Source of the DNA: Thermoproteota archaeon
GTDB taxonomy: Archaea; Korarchaeota; Korarchaeia; Korarchaeales; Korarchaeaceae
Direction of reading: 5' to 3'
NCBI GenBank assembly: GCA_027491395.1
Contig: JAOZFI010000039.1
Span: 9,147-73,146, forward strand
DNA: 64,000 nucleotides
The notes beneath the pieces are model-generated. The model worked only from the letters and a program-made list of their open reading frames with translations. It did not search any database and was not told where the DNA came from. Shown here one piece after another: positions 8,577 through 47,893 of this stretch. How positions within the stretch are numbered: the stretch's first letter is position 1; each line of letters starts with the position of its first letter. The translations under genes were made by a program, and so were the position numbers.

Positions 8577-9464
8577 TCAGTGTTCGCCCTCCCTTCTACC
8601 CTCCTTGGAGAGCCAGTCCTTCACGATCTCCATCAGCTCCATGGGTATCAGGAACTTTGTGGCCTCGGAGGAACCTATCACCTTCAGCCCATCCAAGTAC
8701 TGAAGCTTCATGGTCTTCTCATCCAACGCCTTCGCGACCTCGTCTATGGTCTTGAGGGCCAAGGCGTAGCCCTCAGCCTTGAGTATCTGGGCCTGCCTCT
8801 CACCCTCGGCCTTCAGTATGGCCGCCTGCTTCTCGCCCTCAGCTACCTTTATTGCCGCCTCCTTCTTTCCCTCAGCCTCTGTTACCATGGCCCTCCTGTT
8901 ACGTTCAGCAGCCATCTGCTTTATCATAGCCTCCTGAACCGTTTTAGGAGGTAATATCTCCCTGATCTCTACGTTTGTTATCTTGACGCCCCATCGCTCG
9001 GTCACCTCATCGAGCTTAACTCTCAGGATGTTGTTTATCTCATCTCTCTTTGCTAGGACCTCATCAAGCATCATTTCTCCTATGACCGCTCTCAGTGTGG
9101 TGGTAGCTATTCCTATTGCCGCCCCCTTGAAGTCCGACACGTTGAGGACGCTCGCCATGGGATCCACCACCTTGTAGTAGACGATGAAGTCTATATCGGT
9201 GGGGGCGTTGTCCTTCGTTATGCAGGTCTGATGCGGCACATCGAAGTAGCTCTCCCTCAGGTCTATCCATATTATTTGGTCAATTATAGGAACCCTGAAT
9301 ACTATACCGGGCCCTTTCACCCCTAGAAACCTGCCCAGCCTCAGAATTACAAGCCTCTTGAACTCAGGCACTATTTTAATTGCCGAAGCTAGGAACAGGA
9401 TCAGGATAAAGACGACAACAGCTATAAGGAACTCTGACAGACCCAAAACTACAGCTTGGGTCAT
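8577..9464 (-). CDS. SPFH/band 7 (stomatin/prohibitin-like) membrane protein
   Basis: N-terminal TM, RLGRFLGVKGPG, QTCITKDN, RAVIGEM, RWGVKITNVEIREI, coiled tail AEGERQAQILKAEG. Confidence 0.9.
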   Translation of the reverse strand: MTQAVVLGLSEFLIAVVVFILILFLASAIKIVPEFKRLVILRLGRFLGVKGPGIVFRVPIIDQIIWIDLRESYFDVPHQTCITKDNAPTDIDFIVYYKVVDPMASVLNVSDFKGAAIGIATTTLRAVIGEMMLDEVLAKRDEINNILRVKLDEVTERWGVKITNVEIREILPPKTVQEAMIKQMAAERNRRAMVTEAEGKKEAAIKVAEGEKQAAILKAEGERQAQILKAEGYALALKTIDEVAKALDEKTMKLQYLDGLKVIGSSEATKFLIPMELMEIVKDWLSKEGRREGEH

Positions 9465-44298: not shown

Positions 44299-45690
44299 TC
44301 AGGTTACACCGGCCTTCCCGGAGTATATGGCATAGGCCCTGCCATAAACTATGAGCTCTTGGACATGGAGCCCCACCGGACAGGCTTGGGAGCACTGTCC
44401 GCAGAGAACGCACGAGTAGAGCCTATCCAGAACGGCCTTGGGCCTTACAGGATCACCCTTCACGAGGGAATTTATCAAGGTCATCCTACCCCTCGCCGAC
44501 CTGCTCTCCAGCCTGTCCAATGCTTTGGCCGTGGGACACTCCACATTGCAGAAACCGCACTTCTTGCATTTGTCCGTCTCCCACTCGAGCATCTCAGCTA
44601 GGTCCTTTAGCTCTAGGCTCTTAGGTCTGGGGCTTGACGGGAATACCTTGTACCTATTGAAGCTCGGTTCCTCCGGCATCGTCTCCTCGATTCCGTTCCT
44701 CATAGCCTCGGCTACCAAGGATGCGAGGTCCTCAACGCTGATGTCCAAGCCAATAGCATCGAAGCCCGTTCTAAGCATCATTATGCACGCTGGACAGGAG
44801 GTGAAGACCATTTGAGCCCCGGTACCCTTCAACTCCTCTATCCTCGCGTAGGAGACCTTCCTAGCCAGGGGAGGTTGAGTGAGCTCCAGCCCCCCGTCAC
44901 CGCTGCATCCGGTATTCACTCCGTGCCTAGGAGGCTCCACGTACTTCACACCATCGATCCTGCTGAGGATGAATCTGACCTCGTCCACCACTCCCAGAGT
45001 CCTCGCCAAGTAGCAGGGATCGTGGTAGGTGACCTTAACCTCCCTGCCCAGCCTCAGGCGCACGCCCTTCTTGGCCATCTCCCTCGCGACGACCTCGACG
45101 AAGTGCAGGGCCTCCACATCCCACCCCTCGACGAACTCCGGGTAGTATAACCTGAAGGCCGTCGCAACTATCGGGTCCAGCGTGATCACCCTCCTCACGC
45201 CCAGTTCCCTGAACCTCCGGTGGACCCACTCCGCGTGCTCCTTGAACTCCCTCAGCAGTCCGTAGGTGTGCAGCGCTACGCCTGAGGGAGGTTCGTTCTC
45301 GAAAAGGTAGCCGACCTCGATTCCGAGGTTCTTAAGCACGTAAATCGCGTCTCTCAAACCCCTCTCATATCTCTCGTTGATTCGACCCCACAATACCTTG
45401 GCACCAACGGTGTATATCCCGAGCTTCCTCATGATTGGCCCGACCTTTGCTAGGGAGTTGATGTCCATGAAACCCTCCAGCCTCTTCAAAGCCCTGAAGG
45501 CACCCTCCGCGTATCCCATAACCGGGTACATCTCGCCGGCATAAAACACCGTGCCGTCCACTGGGCCCTTGGGCAGTAATCCCCTAGCCCACCTCGTCCT
45601 CTGATCCGCGCCCAATCCCAAGACATCGCCAACGGAAGTGGTATTTTCAGATGCGAATTTCACTATCTCCGGGACGGCCGTTCCCTTCAC
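44299..45690 (-). CDS. Fe-S subunit (GlcF-like) with CCG domains first and a 2x[4Fe-4S] domain at the C-terminus
   Basis: YHDPCYLAR, GCSGDGG, TSCPAC; C-terminal CKKCGFCNVECP and CVLCGQCSQACP. Confidence 0.82.
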   Translation of the reverse strand: MKGTAVPEIVKFASENTTSVGDVLGLGADQRTRWARGLLPKGPVDGTVFYAGEMYPVMGYAEGAFRALKRLEGFMDINSLAKVGPIMRKLGIYTVGAKVLWGRINERYERGLRDAIYVLKNLGIEVGYLFENEPPSGVALHTYGLLREFKEHAEWVHRRFRELGVRRVITLDPIVATAFRLYYPEFVEGWDVEALHFVEVVAREMAKKGVRLRLGREVKVTYHDPCYLARTLGVVDEVRFILSRIDGVKYVEPPRHGVNTGCSGDGGLELTQPPLARKVSYARIEELKGTGAQMVFTSCPACIMMLRTGFDAIGLDISVEDLASLVAEAMRNGIEETMPEEPSFNRYKVFPSSPRPKSLELKDLAEMLEWETDKCKKCGFCNVECPTAKALDRLESRSARGRMTLINSLVKGDPVRPKAVLDRLYSCVLCGQCSQACPVGLHVQELIVYGRAYAIYSGKAGVT

Positions 45691-45817
45691 CCGGGGACTT
45701 ACTCCCCCCGCTTACTTATTAGTGGAATGGATCCTACCGGAGAATCGTCCGCTTCCCCGAGATCTTGGATCTCAGCCGAGGGATCCAGATACCTTTATAA
45801 ATTGAAGATCGAGTGAA

Positions 45818-45958
45818 GGCGGAGAGGTGATCTCGCTGAGGGGGGATCGAGAAACTTCTCCCACGCCGTGACCCTCTCCTTGATCTCTCATTACTGGGGA
45901 GAGACCACATCACCGATCCCTTGAGGCGGGACCATGTCTCCTTGAGGAGGTGTCTACT
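45818..45958 (+). promoter_or_regulatory. Long, structured 5' leader of thrS (candidate cis-regulatory RNA)
   Basis: TTTATAAA at 45794-45801; imperfect stem 45818-45867; UCUCC-UUGA-GGAGG hairpin covering the SD. Confidence 0.4.
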
Positions 45959-47893
45959 ATGGTCAAGCTGAGATTGCCAGATGGGAGGGAGCTGGAGGCC
46001 AAAATAGGCGAGAGCATACTTGAGCAGATTCCTCCTGAGTCTGGACTCGTGGCTAAGGTGGACGGCAGGCTCGTGGATCTCACTTGGATTGTTCACGAGG
46101 GAGTGGAGACGATAGAGGTGCTGGACTTCAACTCCCCCGAGGGCAGGGAGACCTACTGGCACACCTCTTCCCATATACTGGCTCAGGCGGTGAAGAGGCT
46201 CTTCCCAGAGGCGAAGCTAGGAATAGGTCCTGCTATAGAGGAGGGCTTCTTCTACGACTTCGATCTCGGAGGAAGATCCTTCTCTCCGGAGGATCTGGAG
46301 AGGATAGAGGAGGAGATGAGGAGGATAGTGAGAGAGAACCTCCCAGTGGTCAGGGAGGAGATGGGGAGGGAGGAAGCCATCAAGCTGTTCAGGAGCATGG
46401 GCGAGGTATACAAAGTGGAACTCCTCGAGGAGATGGACGAGGATGTGGTCTCGGTCTACAGGCAGGGAGAGTTCGTGGACCTGTGCAGGGGACCTCATCT
46501 CCCCTACACCGGTTATGTGAAGGCCCTCAAGGTACTCCACGCCTCCTCAGCCTACTGGAGGGGTGACGAGAGGAACCCGGTGATGCAGAGGGTCTACGGA
46601 ATATCCTTCCCCACAGAGGAGGAGCTGAAGCGCTACCTGAAGATGAGGGAGGAAGCTAGGAAGAGGGATCACAGGATCGTAGGCCCGCAACTCGACCTCT
46701 TCTCCATGCCCTCCGAATTGATAGGGCCCGGTTTAGTGATCTGGCACCCCAAGGGGGCCCGAATAAGAAGGGTGATAGAGGATTTCCTAGTAAGGGTCCA
46801 TCTGAAGTGGGGTTACGAGCTCGTTTACTCACCCCACATAGCCTACACCAACCTCTGGAGGACCTCAGGTCACCTCAACTATTACAGGGACTTCATGTAC
46901 GTCTTCGAGAAGGAGGGGATAGAGCACGCAGTCAAGCCCATGAACTGTCCTTTCCACATACTCGTGTACAAGTCCAAGAGGAGGAGCTACAGGGAACTCC
47001 CAATGAGGCTGTTCGAGCTCGGCACAGTGTACAGGTACGAGAGGTCCGGAGTGTTACACGGCCTGCTCAGGGCTAGGGGGTTCACCCAAGATGACGCCCA
47101 CATCTTCACGACCCCGGAGAAGCTGGAGGAGGAGATATTCAGGGTCATAGAGCTGGACGAGTACCTGATGCGATCCTTCGGCTTCGAGGAGTTCAAGGTG
47201 GAGATCTCCACGTGGGACCCGAGGCGTCCCGAAGAATACATGGGGAGCGAGGAGGACTGGATCAGGGCTCAATCAGCTTTGGAAGAGGCGTTAAGGAATA
47301 AAGGCTACGAGTATGAGGTGATGGAGGGTGAGGCCGCCTTCTATGGACCCAAGATAGATGTGAAGCTCGTGGACTCCATAGGGAGGGAGTGGCAGCTGAG
47401 CACCATACAGCTCGACTTCAACCTCCCCAAGAGGTTCAATGTCACTTACGTAGACGCCGACGGGAGTGAGAAGACCGTCATTATGATACATAGAGCCCTT
47501 CTAGGATCCATAGAGAGGTTCTTCGGCATACTGCTCGAGCACTACGCCGGGAACTTCCCCCTCTGGCTAGCCCCAGTTCAGGCGAGGGTATTGCCCGTAG
47601 CTGAGAGGCATCTGGACAGGGCGAGGGAGGTTCTAGATCGCCTGCTCAGTGCCGGAATCAGGGCTGATCTGGATGACGCCAGAGGGACCCTTGGGTACAG
47701 GATAAGGGAGAGCGAGCTGGAGAAGGTACCGATCCTCCTAGTGATAGGTGACAGGGAGGTAGAGTCTGGTAAGGTGGCGGTGAGGCGCAAGGGCAAGGGG
47801 AACCTTGGGTCCATGGATCTGGAGGAGTTCCTCAGGGAGTTCACGGAGGAGTTCTTGCCGCCGGATCTGAGGGGAGGCTCCTCAACTTTTTAG
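45959..47893 (+). CDS. thrS: Threonyl-tRNA synthetase, full-length bacterial-type architecture (TGS, N2 editing, catalytic, anticodon-binding)
   Basis: WHTSSH, GIGPAIE, DLCRGPH, RDHR, KPMNCP, YRYE, FTQDDAH, AFYGPK, HRA. ATG follows a GGAGGTG SD. Confidence 0.96.
   Translation: MVKLRLPDGRELEAKIGESILEQIPPESGLVAKVDGRLVDLTWIVHEGVETIEVLDFNSPEGRETYWHTSSHILAQAVKRLFPEAKLGIGPAIEEGFFYDFDLGGRSFSPEDLERIEEEMRRIVRENLPVVREEMGREEAIKLFRSMGEVYKVELLEEMDEDVVSVYRQGEFVDLCRGPHLPYTGYVKALKVLHASSAYWRGDERNPVMQRVYGISFPTEEELKRYLKMREEARKRDHRIVGPQLDLFSMPSELIGPGLVIWHPKGARIRRVIEDFLVRVHLKWGYELVYSPHIAYTNLWRTSGHLNYYRDFMYVFEKEGIEHAVKPMNCPFHILVYKSKRRSYRELPMRLFELGTVYRYERSGVLHGLLRARGFTQDDAHIFTTPEKLEEEIFRVIELDEYLMRSFGFEEFKVEISTWDPRRPEEYMGSEEDWIRAQSALEEALRNKGYEYEVMEGEAAFYGPKIDVKLVDSIGREWQLSTIQLDFNLPKRFNVTYVDADGSEKTVIMIHRALLGSIERFFGILLEHYAGNFPLWLAPVQARVLPVAERHLDRAREVLDRLLSAGIRADLDDARGTLGYRIRESELEKVPILLVIGDREVESGKVAVRRKGKGNLGSMDLEEFLREFTEEFLPPDLRGGSSTF

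Follow-up and report, generated by a model that had tools for sequence, protein, structure and literature searches.

A conserved, probably translated leader of the threonyl-tRNA synthetase gene in Korarchaeum, with a candidate +1 frameshift site at a threonine codon

The window analyzed here is the whole stretch of 64,000 nucleotides (nt) at positions 9,147 to 73,146 of contig JAOZFI010000039.1, from a Thermoproteota archaeon of the Korarchaeaceae (assembly GCA_027491395.1). It carries thrS, the sole threonyl-tRNA synthetase (ThrRS) gene of the genome, with its ATG at 45959 and a leader of ~130 nt (a length deduced from the TATA box and the ATG, with a predicted transcript start). This leader contains a cassette, kept throughout the genus Korarchaeum, in which a short reading frame (frame 0) stops soon after a Thr codon and the +1 frame stays open up to the start of thrS. 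From the comparisons given below, it is very probable that the leader is translated and that its translation is coupled to that of thrS. We put at slightly better than even the chance that thrS is driven by a programmed +1 frameshift at NAA|ACN, with a hungry Thr codon sensing Thr-tRNA. The elements of the locus, in window coordinates, are the following.

45794 to 45801, forward strand: TATA box TTTATAAA of the thrS leader transcript; a TATA-like box is kept in all 21 Korarchaeum leaders.
45826 to 45829, forward strand: conserved GGTG, with a fixed spacing of 6 nt to YTG in 20 of the 21 leaders.
45827 to 45871, forward strand: frame-0 mini-ORF (ORF, open reading frame) GTG ATC TCG CTG AGG GGG GAT CGA GAA ACT TCT CCC ACG CCG TGA, with the predicted product VISLRGDRETSPTP followed by the stop.
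45837 to 45839, forward strand: UGA that shuts the +1 frame immediately before the cassette; 20 of the 21 leaders have it, as YTGA.
45839 to 45848, forward strand: internal Shine–Dalgarno (SD)-like element AGGGGGGATC (AGGAGGGATC in most relatives), which pairs with the 3′ end of 16S rRNA.
45851 to 45857, forward strand: candidate shift site GAA ACT T, with GAA assigned to the P site and ACT to the A site from the frame-overlap windows; after a +1 slip it would read AAA CTT.
45852 to 45971, forward strand: +1-frame leader ORF (AAA CTT ... TGA) of 39 codons, ending 10 nt inside thrS (stop TGA at 45969–45971).
45946 to 45952, forward strand: thrS SD GGAGGTG, from its sequence and its duplex with the 16S tail.
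45959 to 47893, forward strand: thrS, bacterial-type ThrRS of 644 amino acids (Pfam tRNA_SAD, tRNA-synt_2b, and HGTP_anticodon).

The core sample consists of the thrS upstream regions of 20 congeners carrying thrS (ThrRS 73–98% identical) together with one metagenome contig, or 21 leaders. In all 21, the cassette GGTG-N6-YTG AGG AGG GAT CGA GAA ACT T (that is, GGTG-N6-YTG-AGGAGGGATCGAGAAACT-T) occurs, one per genome, 38–44 nt downstream of the start of the TATA-like box. The leaders range from 59 to 157 nt, their flanks are unrelated between clades, and no second conserved block is observed among them. Within the cassette, the variation is restricted to A or G at one position, to the middle base of CGA (G, A, or T), and to the last base (T or C), with a few additional changes in the L008 lineage. 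The cassette is single-copy, always precedes thrS, and is absent from the other genera of the class. In exact-pattern scans of 596 Gb of genomes and of a metagenome collection, it occurs in a thrS context only in Korarchaeum, the other matches being chance matches devoid of context. Beyond the variation just given, the minority codons of the cassette (CGA, 2% of Arg codons; GAA, 21% of Glu codons; ACT, 20% of Thr codons) are all invariant, which argues for a constraint on the nucleotides, as for a recoding cassette rather than a functional peptide.

Some further strings were noted. In the clade C leaders (L012–L018 and L021), a conserved (A/G)TGAACCTC follows the TATA box at a distance of 11–12 nt, a position that probably precedes the transcript start. 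A near-match to the cassette, CAGGAGGGATCGATAAACT, recurs with close variants (G013:C1:71016-71035, G015:C60:180-199, G001:C36:7681-7700, and G017:C60:3068-3087); the copies inspected, those of G013 and G015, lie within coding sequence and are unrelated to thrS. The cassette was also considered as the operator of a regulon, and rejected: it is single-copy, and matches with three mismatches are at chance level or in coding regions.

The GTG of GGTG is in frame with YTG...GAA ACT, 9 nt upstream of the YTG, in 20 of the 21 leaders. Its distance from the first base of TTTATA is 27–33 nt, as in leaderless genes: in this genome, the distance from the TTTATA start to the ATG of such genes peaks at 29–32 nt. 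The GTG at 45827–45829 is thus the likely, predicted start of a leaderless frame-0 mini-ORF. If transcription starts further upstream, GGTG may instead act as an SD for the CTG at 45836–45838. The mini-ORF has 10–15 codons; in relatives too it is open from the GTG to the Thr codon, and every leader has a frame-0 stop 3–18 nt past the latter. The frame-0 stops TGA, TAA, and TAG interchange at a fixed position, and the one indel is of 3 nt.

The +1 frame follows an opposite pattern. It is closed just 5′ of the cassette by the UGA; the sole exception is the L008/L221 lineage, which has CGA there and its start codon in the +1 frame. No ATG, GTG, or TTG is found in the +1 frame of the Korarchaeum leaders between that UGA and the cassette. 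From the cassette to the thrS start, it is open in 21/21 leaders (22–54 codons), with stops at -3 (UGAUUG), -2 (UGAUG), +4, +5, +7, +10, +13, +20, and +41 with respect to the beginning of thrS. In the stretch from the Thr codon to the thrS start, the stop trinucleotides in frames 0, +1, and +2 number 54, 0, and 34 in the 21 leaders, and 39, 0, and 21 in 14 representative lineages, where (2/3)^60 = 3e-11. With dinucleotide shuffles, the joint probability of an open +1 frame (a product over 13 lineages) is 10^-7.3. The other frames are open to the thrS start in one case out of 42 (the +2 frame in 1/21, frame 0 in 0/21). The peptides encoded in the +1 frame are unrelated between clades, which suggests that the act of translation, and not the product, is under selection.

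Other routes through the leader were set aside. For readthrough of frame 0, or its fusion with thrS, the frames are inconsistent between leaders; for a -1 frameshift, the +2 frame is closed in 20/21 leaders. No conserved antisense ORF is present over the leader: the 146-codon ORF on the minus strand of the window (45734–46174), which covers the leader and the thrS start, does not occur in other clades and is probably spurious.

The point of frame exchange can be narrowed down with natural variants. In L015, a change of CGA to CTA makes a +1-frame TAG directly before AAA, and, in L012, L013, L017, and L021, the frame-0 stop comes directly after ACT. The frame-overlap windows of these leaders intersect at GAA ACT, the candidate exchange site; during the shift, the P site would be occupied by GAA and the A site by ACU. 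The codon following NAA is always a Thr codon, ACU in 20 leaders and ACC, ACG, or ACA in the others. In this genome, ACU is read only by tRNA-Thr(GGU), from a single gene, through a G:U wobble.

The 16S rRNA gene was not found in this assembly (98% complete), so the anti-SD sequence used is that of a congener (G016). The 3′ end of its 16S rRNA is GGAUCACCUCC, to which the perfect SD would be GGAGGUGAUCC; the GGAGG|GAUC of the cassette is the perfect SD minus its U. In Korarchaeum, the duplex between the cassette and the 16S tail has an energy of -13 to -14 kcal/mol and ends 1 nt before GAA. Across all lineages, including those described below, the duplexes of the SD-like elements with GGAUCACCUCC are at -12 to -14 kcal/mol and end 1 nt before NAA in most cases (they are weaker in L222, L223, and L020). 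The duplexes of the real thrS SDs end 1–3 nt before the start in most leaders. Genome-wide, the offset between the first G of GGAGG and the start codon has a sharp peak at 12 (70 genes, with 11 genes at offset 11), and that of GGTGAT peaks at 9. For the GGAGG of the cassette, the offset is 11 to GAA and 12 to AAA, with the GAUC half in canonical register with GAA. With such spacings, the SD-like element would pause the ribosome on GAA/ACU, and a +1 slip would restore the preferred distance.

After the hypothesis was formed, further thrS homologues (56–82% identity) were gathered, and the leaders of two other Korarchaeota (L019 and L020) were re-read; the frame used in the shuffle test on these leaders was fixed in advance. 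Ten further leaders (homologues of 58–82% identity) have the same design with a diverged cassette, made of an SD-like element, NAA, and ACN:

L218 and L220: ATG GGT GGT CAT CAA ACA
L222, L223, and L224: GTG GGT GTT TGT CAA ACA and variants
L226 (archaeon GB-1845-036 / Culexmicrobium): ATG GGT GAT CAT CAA ACC
L019: GTG GCA GGT GAA AGC CAA ACA
L020: GTG AAA GGC GGT CGT CAA ACA
L219: TTG GGG AGG GAT CTC AAA ACG
L221: same type as L008

All ten have NAA as the putative P-site codon, followed by a Thr codon, and a frame-0 stop 6–18 nt after the latter. Nine of them have a +1 frame that is uninterrupted up to the thrS start (it stops at +4 to +34, or is fused with thrS), and the tenth, L020, has 69 open codons in this frame, with the stop 28 nt upstream of the thrS start. 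The stops in frames 0, +1, and +2 are 29, 2, and 20 in these ten leaders, and 83, 2, and 54 in the 31 leaders together. For five independent lineages, the shuffle probabilities are 0.35, 0.22, 0.36, 0.035, and 0.04 (product ~4e-5). Over the 31 leaders, the +1 frame is open for 22–69 codons and its stops are mostly at -3, -2, +4, +5, +7, +10, +11, and +13, the exceptions being +20, +34, +41, and -28, together with three in-frame fusions. The cassette was not recognized in L225 (where thrS comes directly after another gene), L227 (Njordarchaeales), L228 (a WOR-3 bacterium), and L229. In L227, an ORF (contig positions 520–605, open from -77 to +1) opens after the stop of the upstream gene and ends at an ATGA overlapping the thrS start; it may be an unrelated coupling arrangement.

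The fusions are of two types. In L008 (G003) and L221 (GCA_964425125.1), a spacer shorter by 1 nt and the change of UGA to CGA place the 5′ GTG in the +1 frame, with no stop before the thrS ATG. The predicted ThrRS of this lineage would carry an N-terminal extension of 23 residues (MISRGGIEKPNSSGD...), with the cassette otherwise kept. In L219 (ena:ERZ27227321:k141_196463, 150-290), a GC-rich homologue (69% identity) known from one short metagenome contig, the called thrS start is a GTG devoid of an SD, and the +1 frame is fused to thrS with no in-frame start upstream. There, ThrRS itself may need the frameshift, as does release factor 2 (RF2) in bacteria. Both types of fusion indicate that ribosomes in the +1 frame normally go on to make ThrRS, since changes of this kind would otherwise not be expected, and they support a positive coupling.

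The following mechanism can be proposed. The ribosome would initiate at the 5′-proximal GUG (or YUG) and read the mini-ORF. After 8–9 codons, the internal SD-like AGGAGGGAUC would pair with the 16S 3′ tail and keep the ribosome paused over GAA (P site) and ACU (A site). With a quick arrival of Thr-tRNA-Thr, frame 0 would be kept and termination would follow 3–18 nt later, far upstream of thrS. With an empty A site, the ribosome would slip by +1 (from GAA to AAA, then CUU), translate the leader in the +1 frame, and terminate at or just inside the thrS start, where it would re-initiate on thrS or open the ribosome-binding site, so that more ThrRS would be made. In archaea, the coupling of reinitiation to termination is well documented for ORFs that overlap or lie very close together (PMC6728339, PMC10666635). 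In this scheme, we infer from the sequences the transcript start, the frameshift as the entry route into the +1 frame, the assignment of the P and A sites, and the sign of the regulation.

Several observations weigh against this mechanism. The conserved part of the mini-ORF has a single sensor codon, and classical leader peptides contain runs of the cognate codon. The re-pairing of tRNA-Glu or tRNA-Gln on AAA leaves a mismatch at the first position. In seven leaders outside Korarchaeum (L218, L220, L222, L223, L224, L226, and L019), a GUG within the SD-like GGUG, three codons before AAA, belongs to the +1 frame, and translation of the long ORF could begin there with no frameshift. The +1 stops at +20, +34, and +41, and at -28 in L020, are at long distances for termination–reinitiation. 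In thermodynamic modelling, an imposed ribosome footprint produces no consistent change in the accessibility of the thrS SD. The L008/L221 lineage keeps the cassette, though the shift is not needed there. Finally, according to a review of 2021, no cellular programmed +1 frameshift is demonstrated in archaea, +1 events being only suspected (PMC8211752). The only cellular programmed frameshift reported in archaea is the -1 shift of fucA1 in S. solfataricus (PMC8211752).

The earlier note on this DNA had proposed a T-box-like leader with a hairpin occluding the SD, possibly a relic transferred together with a bacterial-type thrS. The strings it pointed out (GGGGGATCG/CGATCCCTT and TCTCC-TTGA-GGAGG) are all found in the sequence, and the Thr codon ACT at 45854–45856 does come directly after GAGAA, with GAGAA-ACU part of the sole leader block invariant throughout the genus. 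The notion of a regulatory leader stands as far as the leader is long, conserved, and specific to thrS, and as far as its Thr codon matters; its T-box and hairpin parts have not survived, and its bacterial part is not supported. The long stem proposed at 45818–45867 has an energy of -21.2 kcal/mol (z-score, z = -1.57), 17 of 200 shuffles fold equally well, so that it does not exceed chance, and its 5′ arm is probably upstream of the transcript start. As to the hairpin over the SD, the feature is the following.

45937 to 45950, forward strand: small hairpin TCTCC-TTGA-GGAGG over the thrS SD; it can form (-7.1 kcal/mol, z = +0.14).

This energy is at chance level, and the hairpin is invariant only in the closest clade, with no covariation, and absent from the other clades. 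It may be melted by ribosomes in the +1 frame, and the frameshift model does not need it. The whole leader (45811–45975) has a minimum free energy with z = +0.55 against shuffles, and the folds of the 21 related leaders, at 37 and 75 C, have no shared architecture. No bacterial promoter-like or terminator-like signals are found at the thrS leader, and no oligo-T terminator is conserved in the leaders. A partner for the cassette downstream in the leader was also looked for: the duplex energies are not clearly better than those of shuffles, and the positions are inconsistent. K-turn or box C/D motifs, mimicry of the tRNA T-arm, complementarity to tRNA-Thr, and the remnant of a CRISPR repeat were judged by eye, and none is kept across clades. 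The origin as a relic co-transferred from bacteria is unsupported. The comparison on the bacterial side comprises one WOR-3 homologue (L228), which has a short intergenic region with no recognized cassette, and the design is seen only in archaea.

Among the explanations other than frameshifting, a T-box-like riboswitch would bind tRNA-Thr through the ACU specifier and sense its 3′ end, and the conserved Thr codon upstream of an aminoacyl-tRNA synthetase (aaRS) gene, together with the likeness of GAGAA-ACU to the GAA-codon layout of specifier loops, points that way. Membership in the family is refuted by the RF00230 and architecture tests. The RF00230 check was run, and an Rfam cmscan of 45400–46300 (E<=10) gives zero matches, which leaves the reported resemblance to the T-box core without support; in 14 related loci (E<=1), no leader family appears, and the hits are limited to two tRNAs and a weak match to a CRISPR repeat. 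From clade to clade, the stems around the cassette change both their register and their sequence; they do not exceed chance, and no Stem I platform is conserved. The nucleotide after the Thr codon is U or C in Korarchaeum, not the purine of T-box specifier loops, and no UGGN/UGGA bulge, antiterminator, or sequestrator is conserved across leaders, although tRNA-Thr ends in UCCA. Since every defining feature tested is missing, the T-box interpretation fails, and we give it hardly any credence. Sensing by the translating ribosome appears more likely than sensing through RNA–tRNA or RNA–ThrRS binding. On the other hand, the invariant block could be a protein site, bound by ThrRS on the mRNA (as for E. 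coli thrS) or by a transcription factor on the DNA next to the TATA box, with the ORFs incidental. Such a site would fit the nucleotide-level invariance (including synonymous sites and the rare codons CGA and GAA), the mostly non-synonymous nature of the changes within the block, its position at about +1 to +30, where archaeal repressors act, and its single-copy, thrS-specific occurrence. However, the block has no dyad symmetry and no conserved anticodon-like NGU loop, the 83/2/54 distribution of stops is left unexplained, and other lineages replace the sequence (GGTGGTCATCAAACA and similar) yet keep the coding architecture, NAA-ACN, and the open +1 frame. A protein site, which could coexist with the frameshift, is in itself quite improbable as the explanation.

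Two alternatives accept a translated leader and dispense with a change of frame. There could be two overlapping upstream ORFs with separate starts, the choice of start or stalling on the short ORF setting the flow of ribosomes to thrS; the long ORF would have its start either at the GUG of GGUG or at a non-canonical codon, for instance AUC. That the long ORF ends where thrS begins is compatible with plain translational coupling, and the seven leaders with a +1-frame GUG have the required start. That GUG is not independent evidence, because an SD-like GGUG placed 9 nt before the P-site codon makes it unavoidable, and a +1-frame ATG, GTG, or TTG between the upstream stop and the cassette is missing from L219 and L020, as it is from Korarchaeum (21 leaders). 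Besides, the conserved NAA-ACN and the early frame-0 stop would have no explanation, and the regulation would have the wrong sign, because a ribosome stalled 5–9 codons in would block both starts. We regard separate starts as unlikely. With leader-peptide attenuation, a stall at the frame-0 Thr codon would remodel the RNA and either free the thrS SD or prevent termination. A short 5′ ORF with a conserved Thr codon is indeed present, but it has one Thr codon and not a run; there are no conserved alternative hairpins, the leader free energy is at chance level, there is no oligo-T terminator, and the footprint of a stalled ribosome has no consistent effect on SD accessibility. The total lack of +1-frame stops would also remain without explanation, and attenuation has a low probability in our view. 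The frameshift at NAA|ACN is the reading we prefer.

In the window, the gene next to thrS on the upstream side is a divergent CCG/4Fe-4S gene. Within the family, the bacterial type of ThrRS is restricted to the genus Korarchaeum; the sister genera have an archaeal-type thrS at ~30% identity, with no cassette. The nearest ThrRS homologues outside the genus (58–69% identity) belong to other archaeal lineages. This restricted distribution, with the nearest homologues in other archaea, suggests that the bacterial-type ThrRS and its leader design came as a replacement by lateral transfer among archaea.

With the further leaders included, we see about an even chance that at least two phylum-level archaeal groups (Korarchaeota, and lineages labelled Thermoprotei or Culexmicrobium) regulate thrS through a +1 frameshift in an upstream ORF, where the A-site Thr codon would sense the charging of Thr-tRNA and an SD-like element would keep the ribosome at a slippery NAA, decoded by tRNA-Glu, tRNA-Gln, or tRNA-Lys. 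In that case, a cellular gene of archaea would provide the first instance of regulatory +1 recoding, which would extend the range known for recoding, and a third means of coupling aaRS synthesis to tRNA charging would stand next to T-boxes and leader-peptide attenuation. The leader would also be a natural case of an SD-like element acting on elongating archaeal ribosomes. To our knowledge, neither T-boxes nor classical attenuators have been described in archaea, and we found in the literature no aaRS controlled by frameshifting in an upstream ORF. The control of aaRS levels in archaea is little understood, and the thrS leader offers a concrete mechanism open to mutational tests. The design, which is compact and modular, comprises a start, an SD-like element, NAA, a sensor codon, and a leader ORF ending at the target start, and it could in principle be re-targeted to other amino acids.

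The proposed system can be compared with several known ones. As in T-boxes (RF00230), an aaRS would be controlled by tRNA charging, with a leader codon specifying the amino acid, but the leader has no architecture for RNA–tRNA recognition and its codon would be read by the ribosome. With the E. coli thrS operator, where ThrRS binds mimics of the tRNA-Thr anticodon arm next to the SD, it would share the gene family, the level of translation, and the location in the 5′ leader. In contrast to that operator, there are no conserved anticodon-like stem–loops, the block is 60–230 nt from the thrS SD, and the architecture is coding and not structural. The loops of tRNA-Thr read YU-NGU-AA. No NGU loop of the E. 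coli type is shared by the clades, and the AGGAGGGATCGAGAAACT block is devoid of GU. The attenuators of thrL, the pheST leader, and hisL likewise use a short 5′ ORF, which reads the charging of one tRNA through cognate codons and controls an amino-acid or aaRS gene. The thrS leader differs by its one Thr codon, by the lack of terminator and antiterminator hairpins, and by its proposed output, a change of frame followed by translational coupling instead of transcription termination.

Among eukaryotic +1 shifts, that of Ty1 occurs at CUU-AGG-C and another is that of antizyme. There also, a slow A-site codon triggers the shift and is used as a sensor, but the shift sites are different, there is no SD-like stimulator, and the shift takes place inside the main ORF rather than in an ORF upstream of an aaRS gene. 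Antizyme and hungry-codon frameshifting are both mentioned in PMC8211752. In most leaders, the junction with thrS (UGAUUG, UGAUG, AUGGUAA, or a stop within ~13 nt) is like those of archaeal termination–reinitiation pairs (PMC6728339, PMC10666635), except that the upstream ORF is a non-conserved leader frame and that the overlaps of +20 to +41 exceed the distances shown to couple.

With the +1 frameshift of prfB, the gene of RF2, the proposed leader would share a slow A-site codon acting as a sensor, a frame 0 that ends at once, a +1 frame that leads to the product, and a homeostatic feedback by the sensed activity itself. Both have an SD-like element just upstream of the shift site; it is AGGGGG in E. 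coli prfB, and the window also reads AGGGGG. They differ in the sensor, which is a stop codon read by a release factor in prfB and would be, in the leader, a Thr sense codon read by an aminoacyl-tRNA. The site in the thrS leader is located in an upstream mini-ORF and not inside the regulated gene (with the exception of the L219-like lineage, where the two are fused), and its shifted product would be a non-conserved peptide, translation ending at the thrS start. Lastly, the P-site codon is NAA in the thrS leader versus CUU in prfB, and the host is an archaeon.

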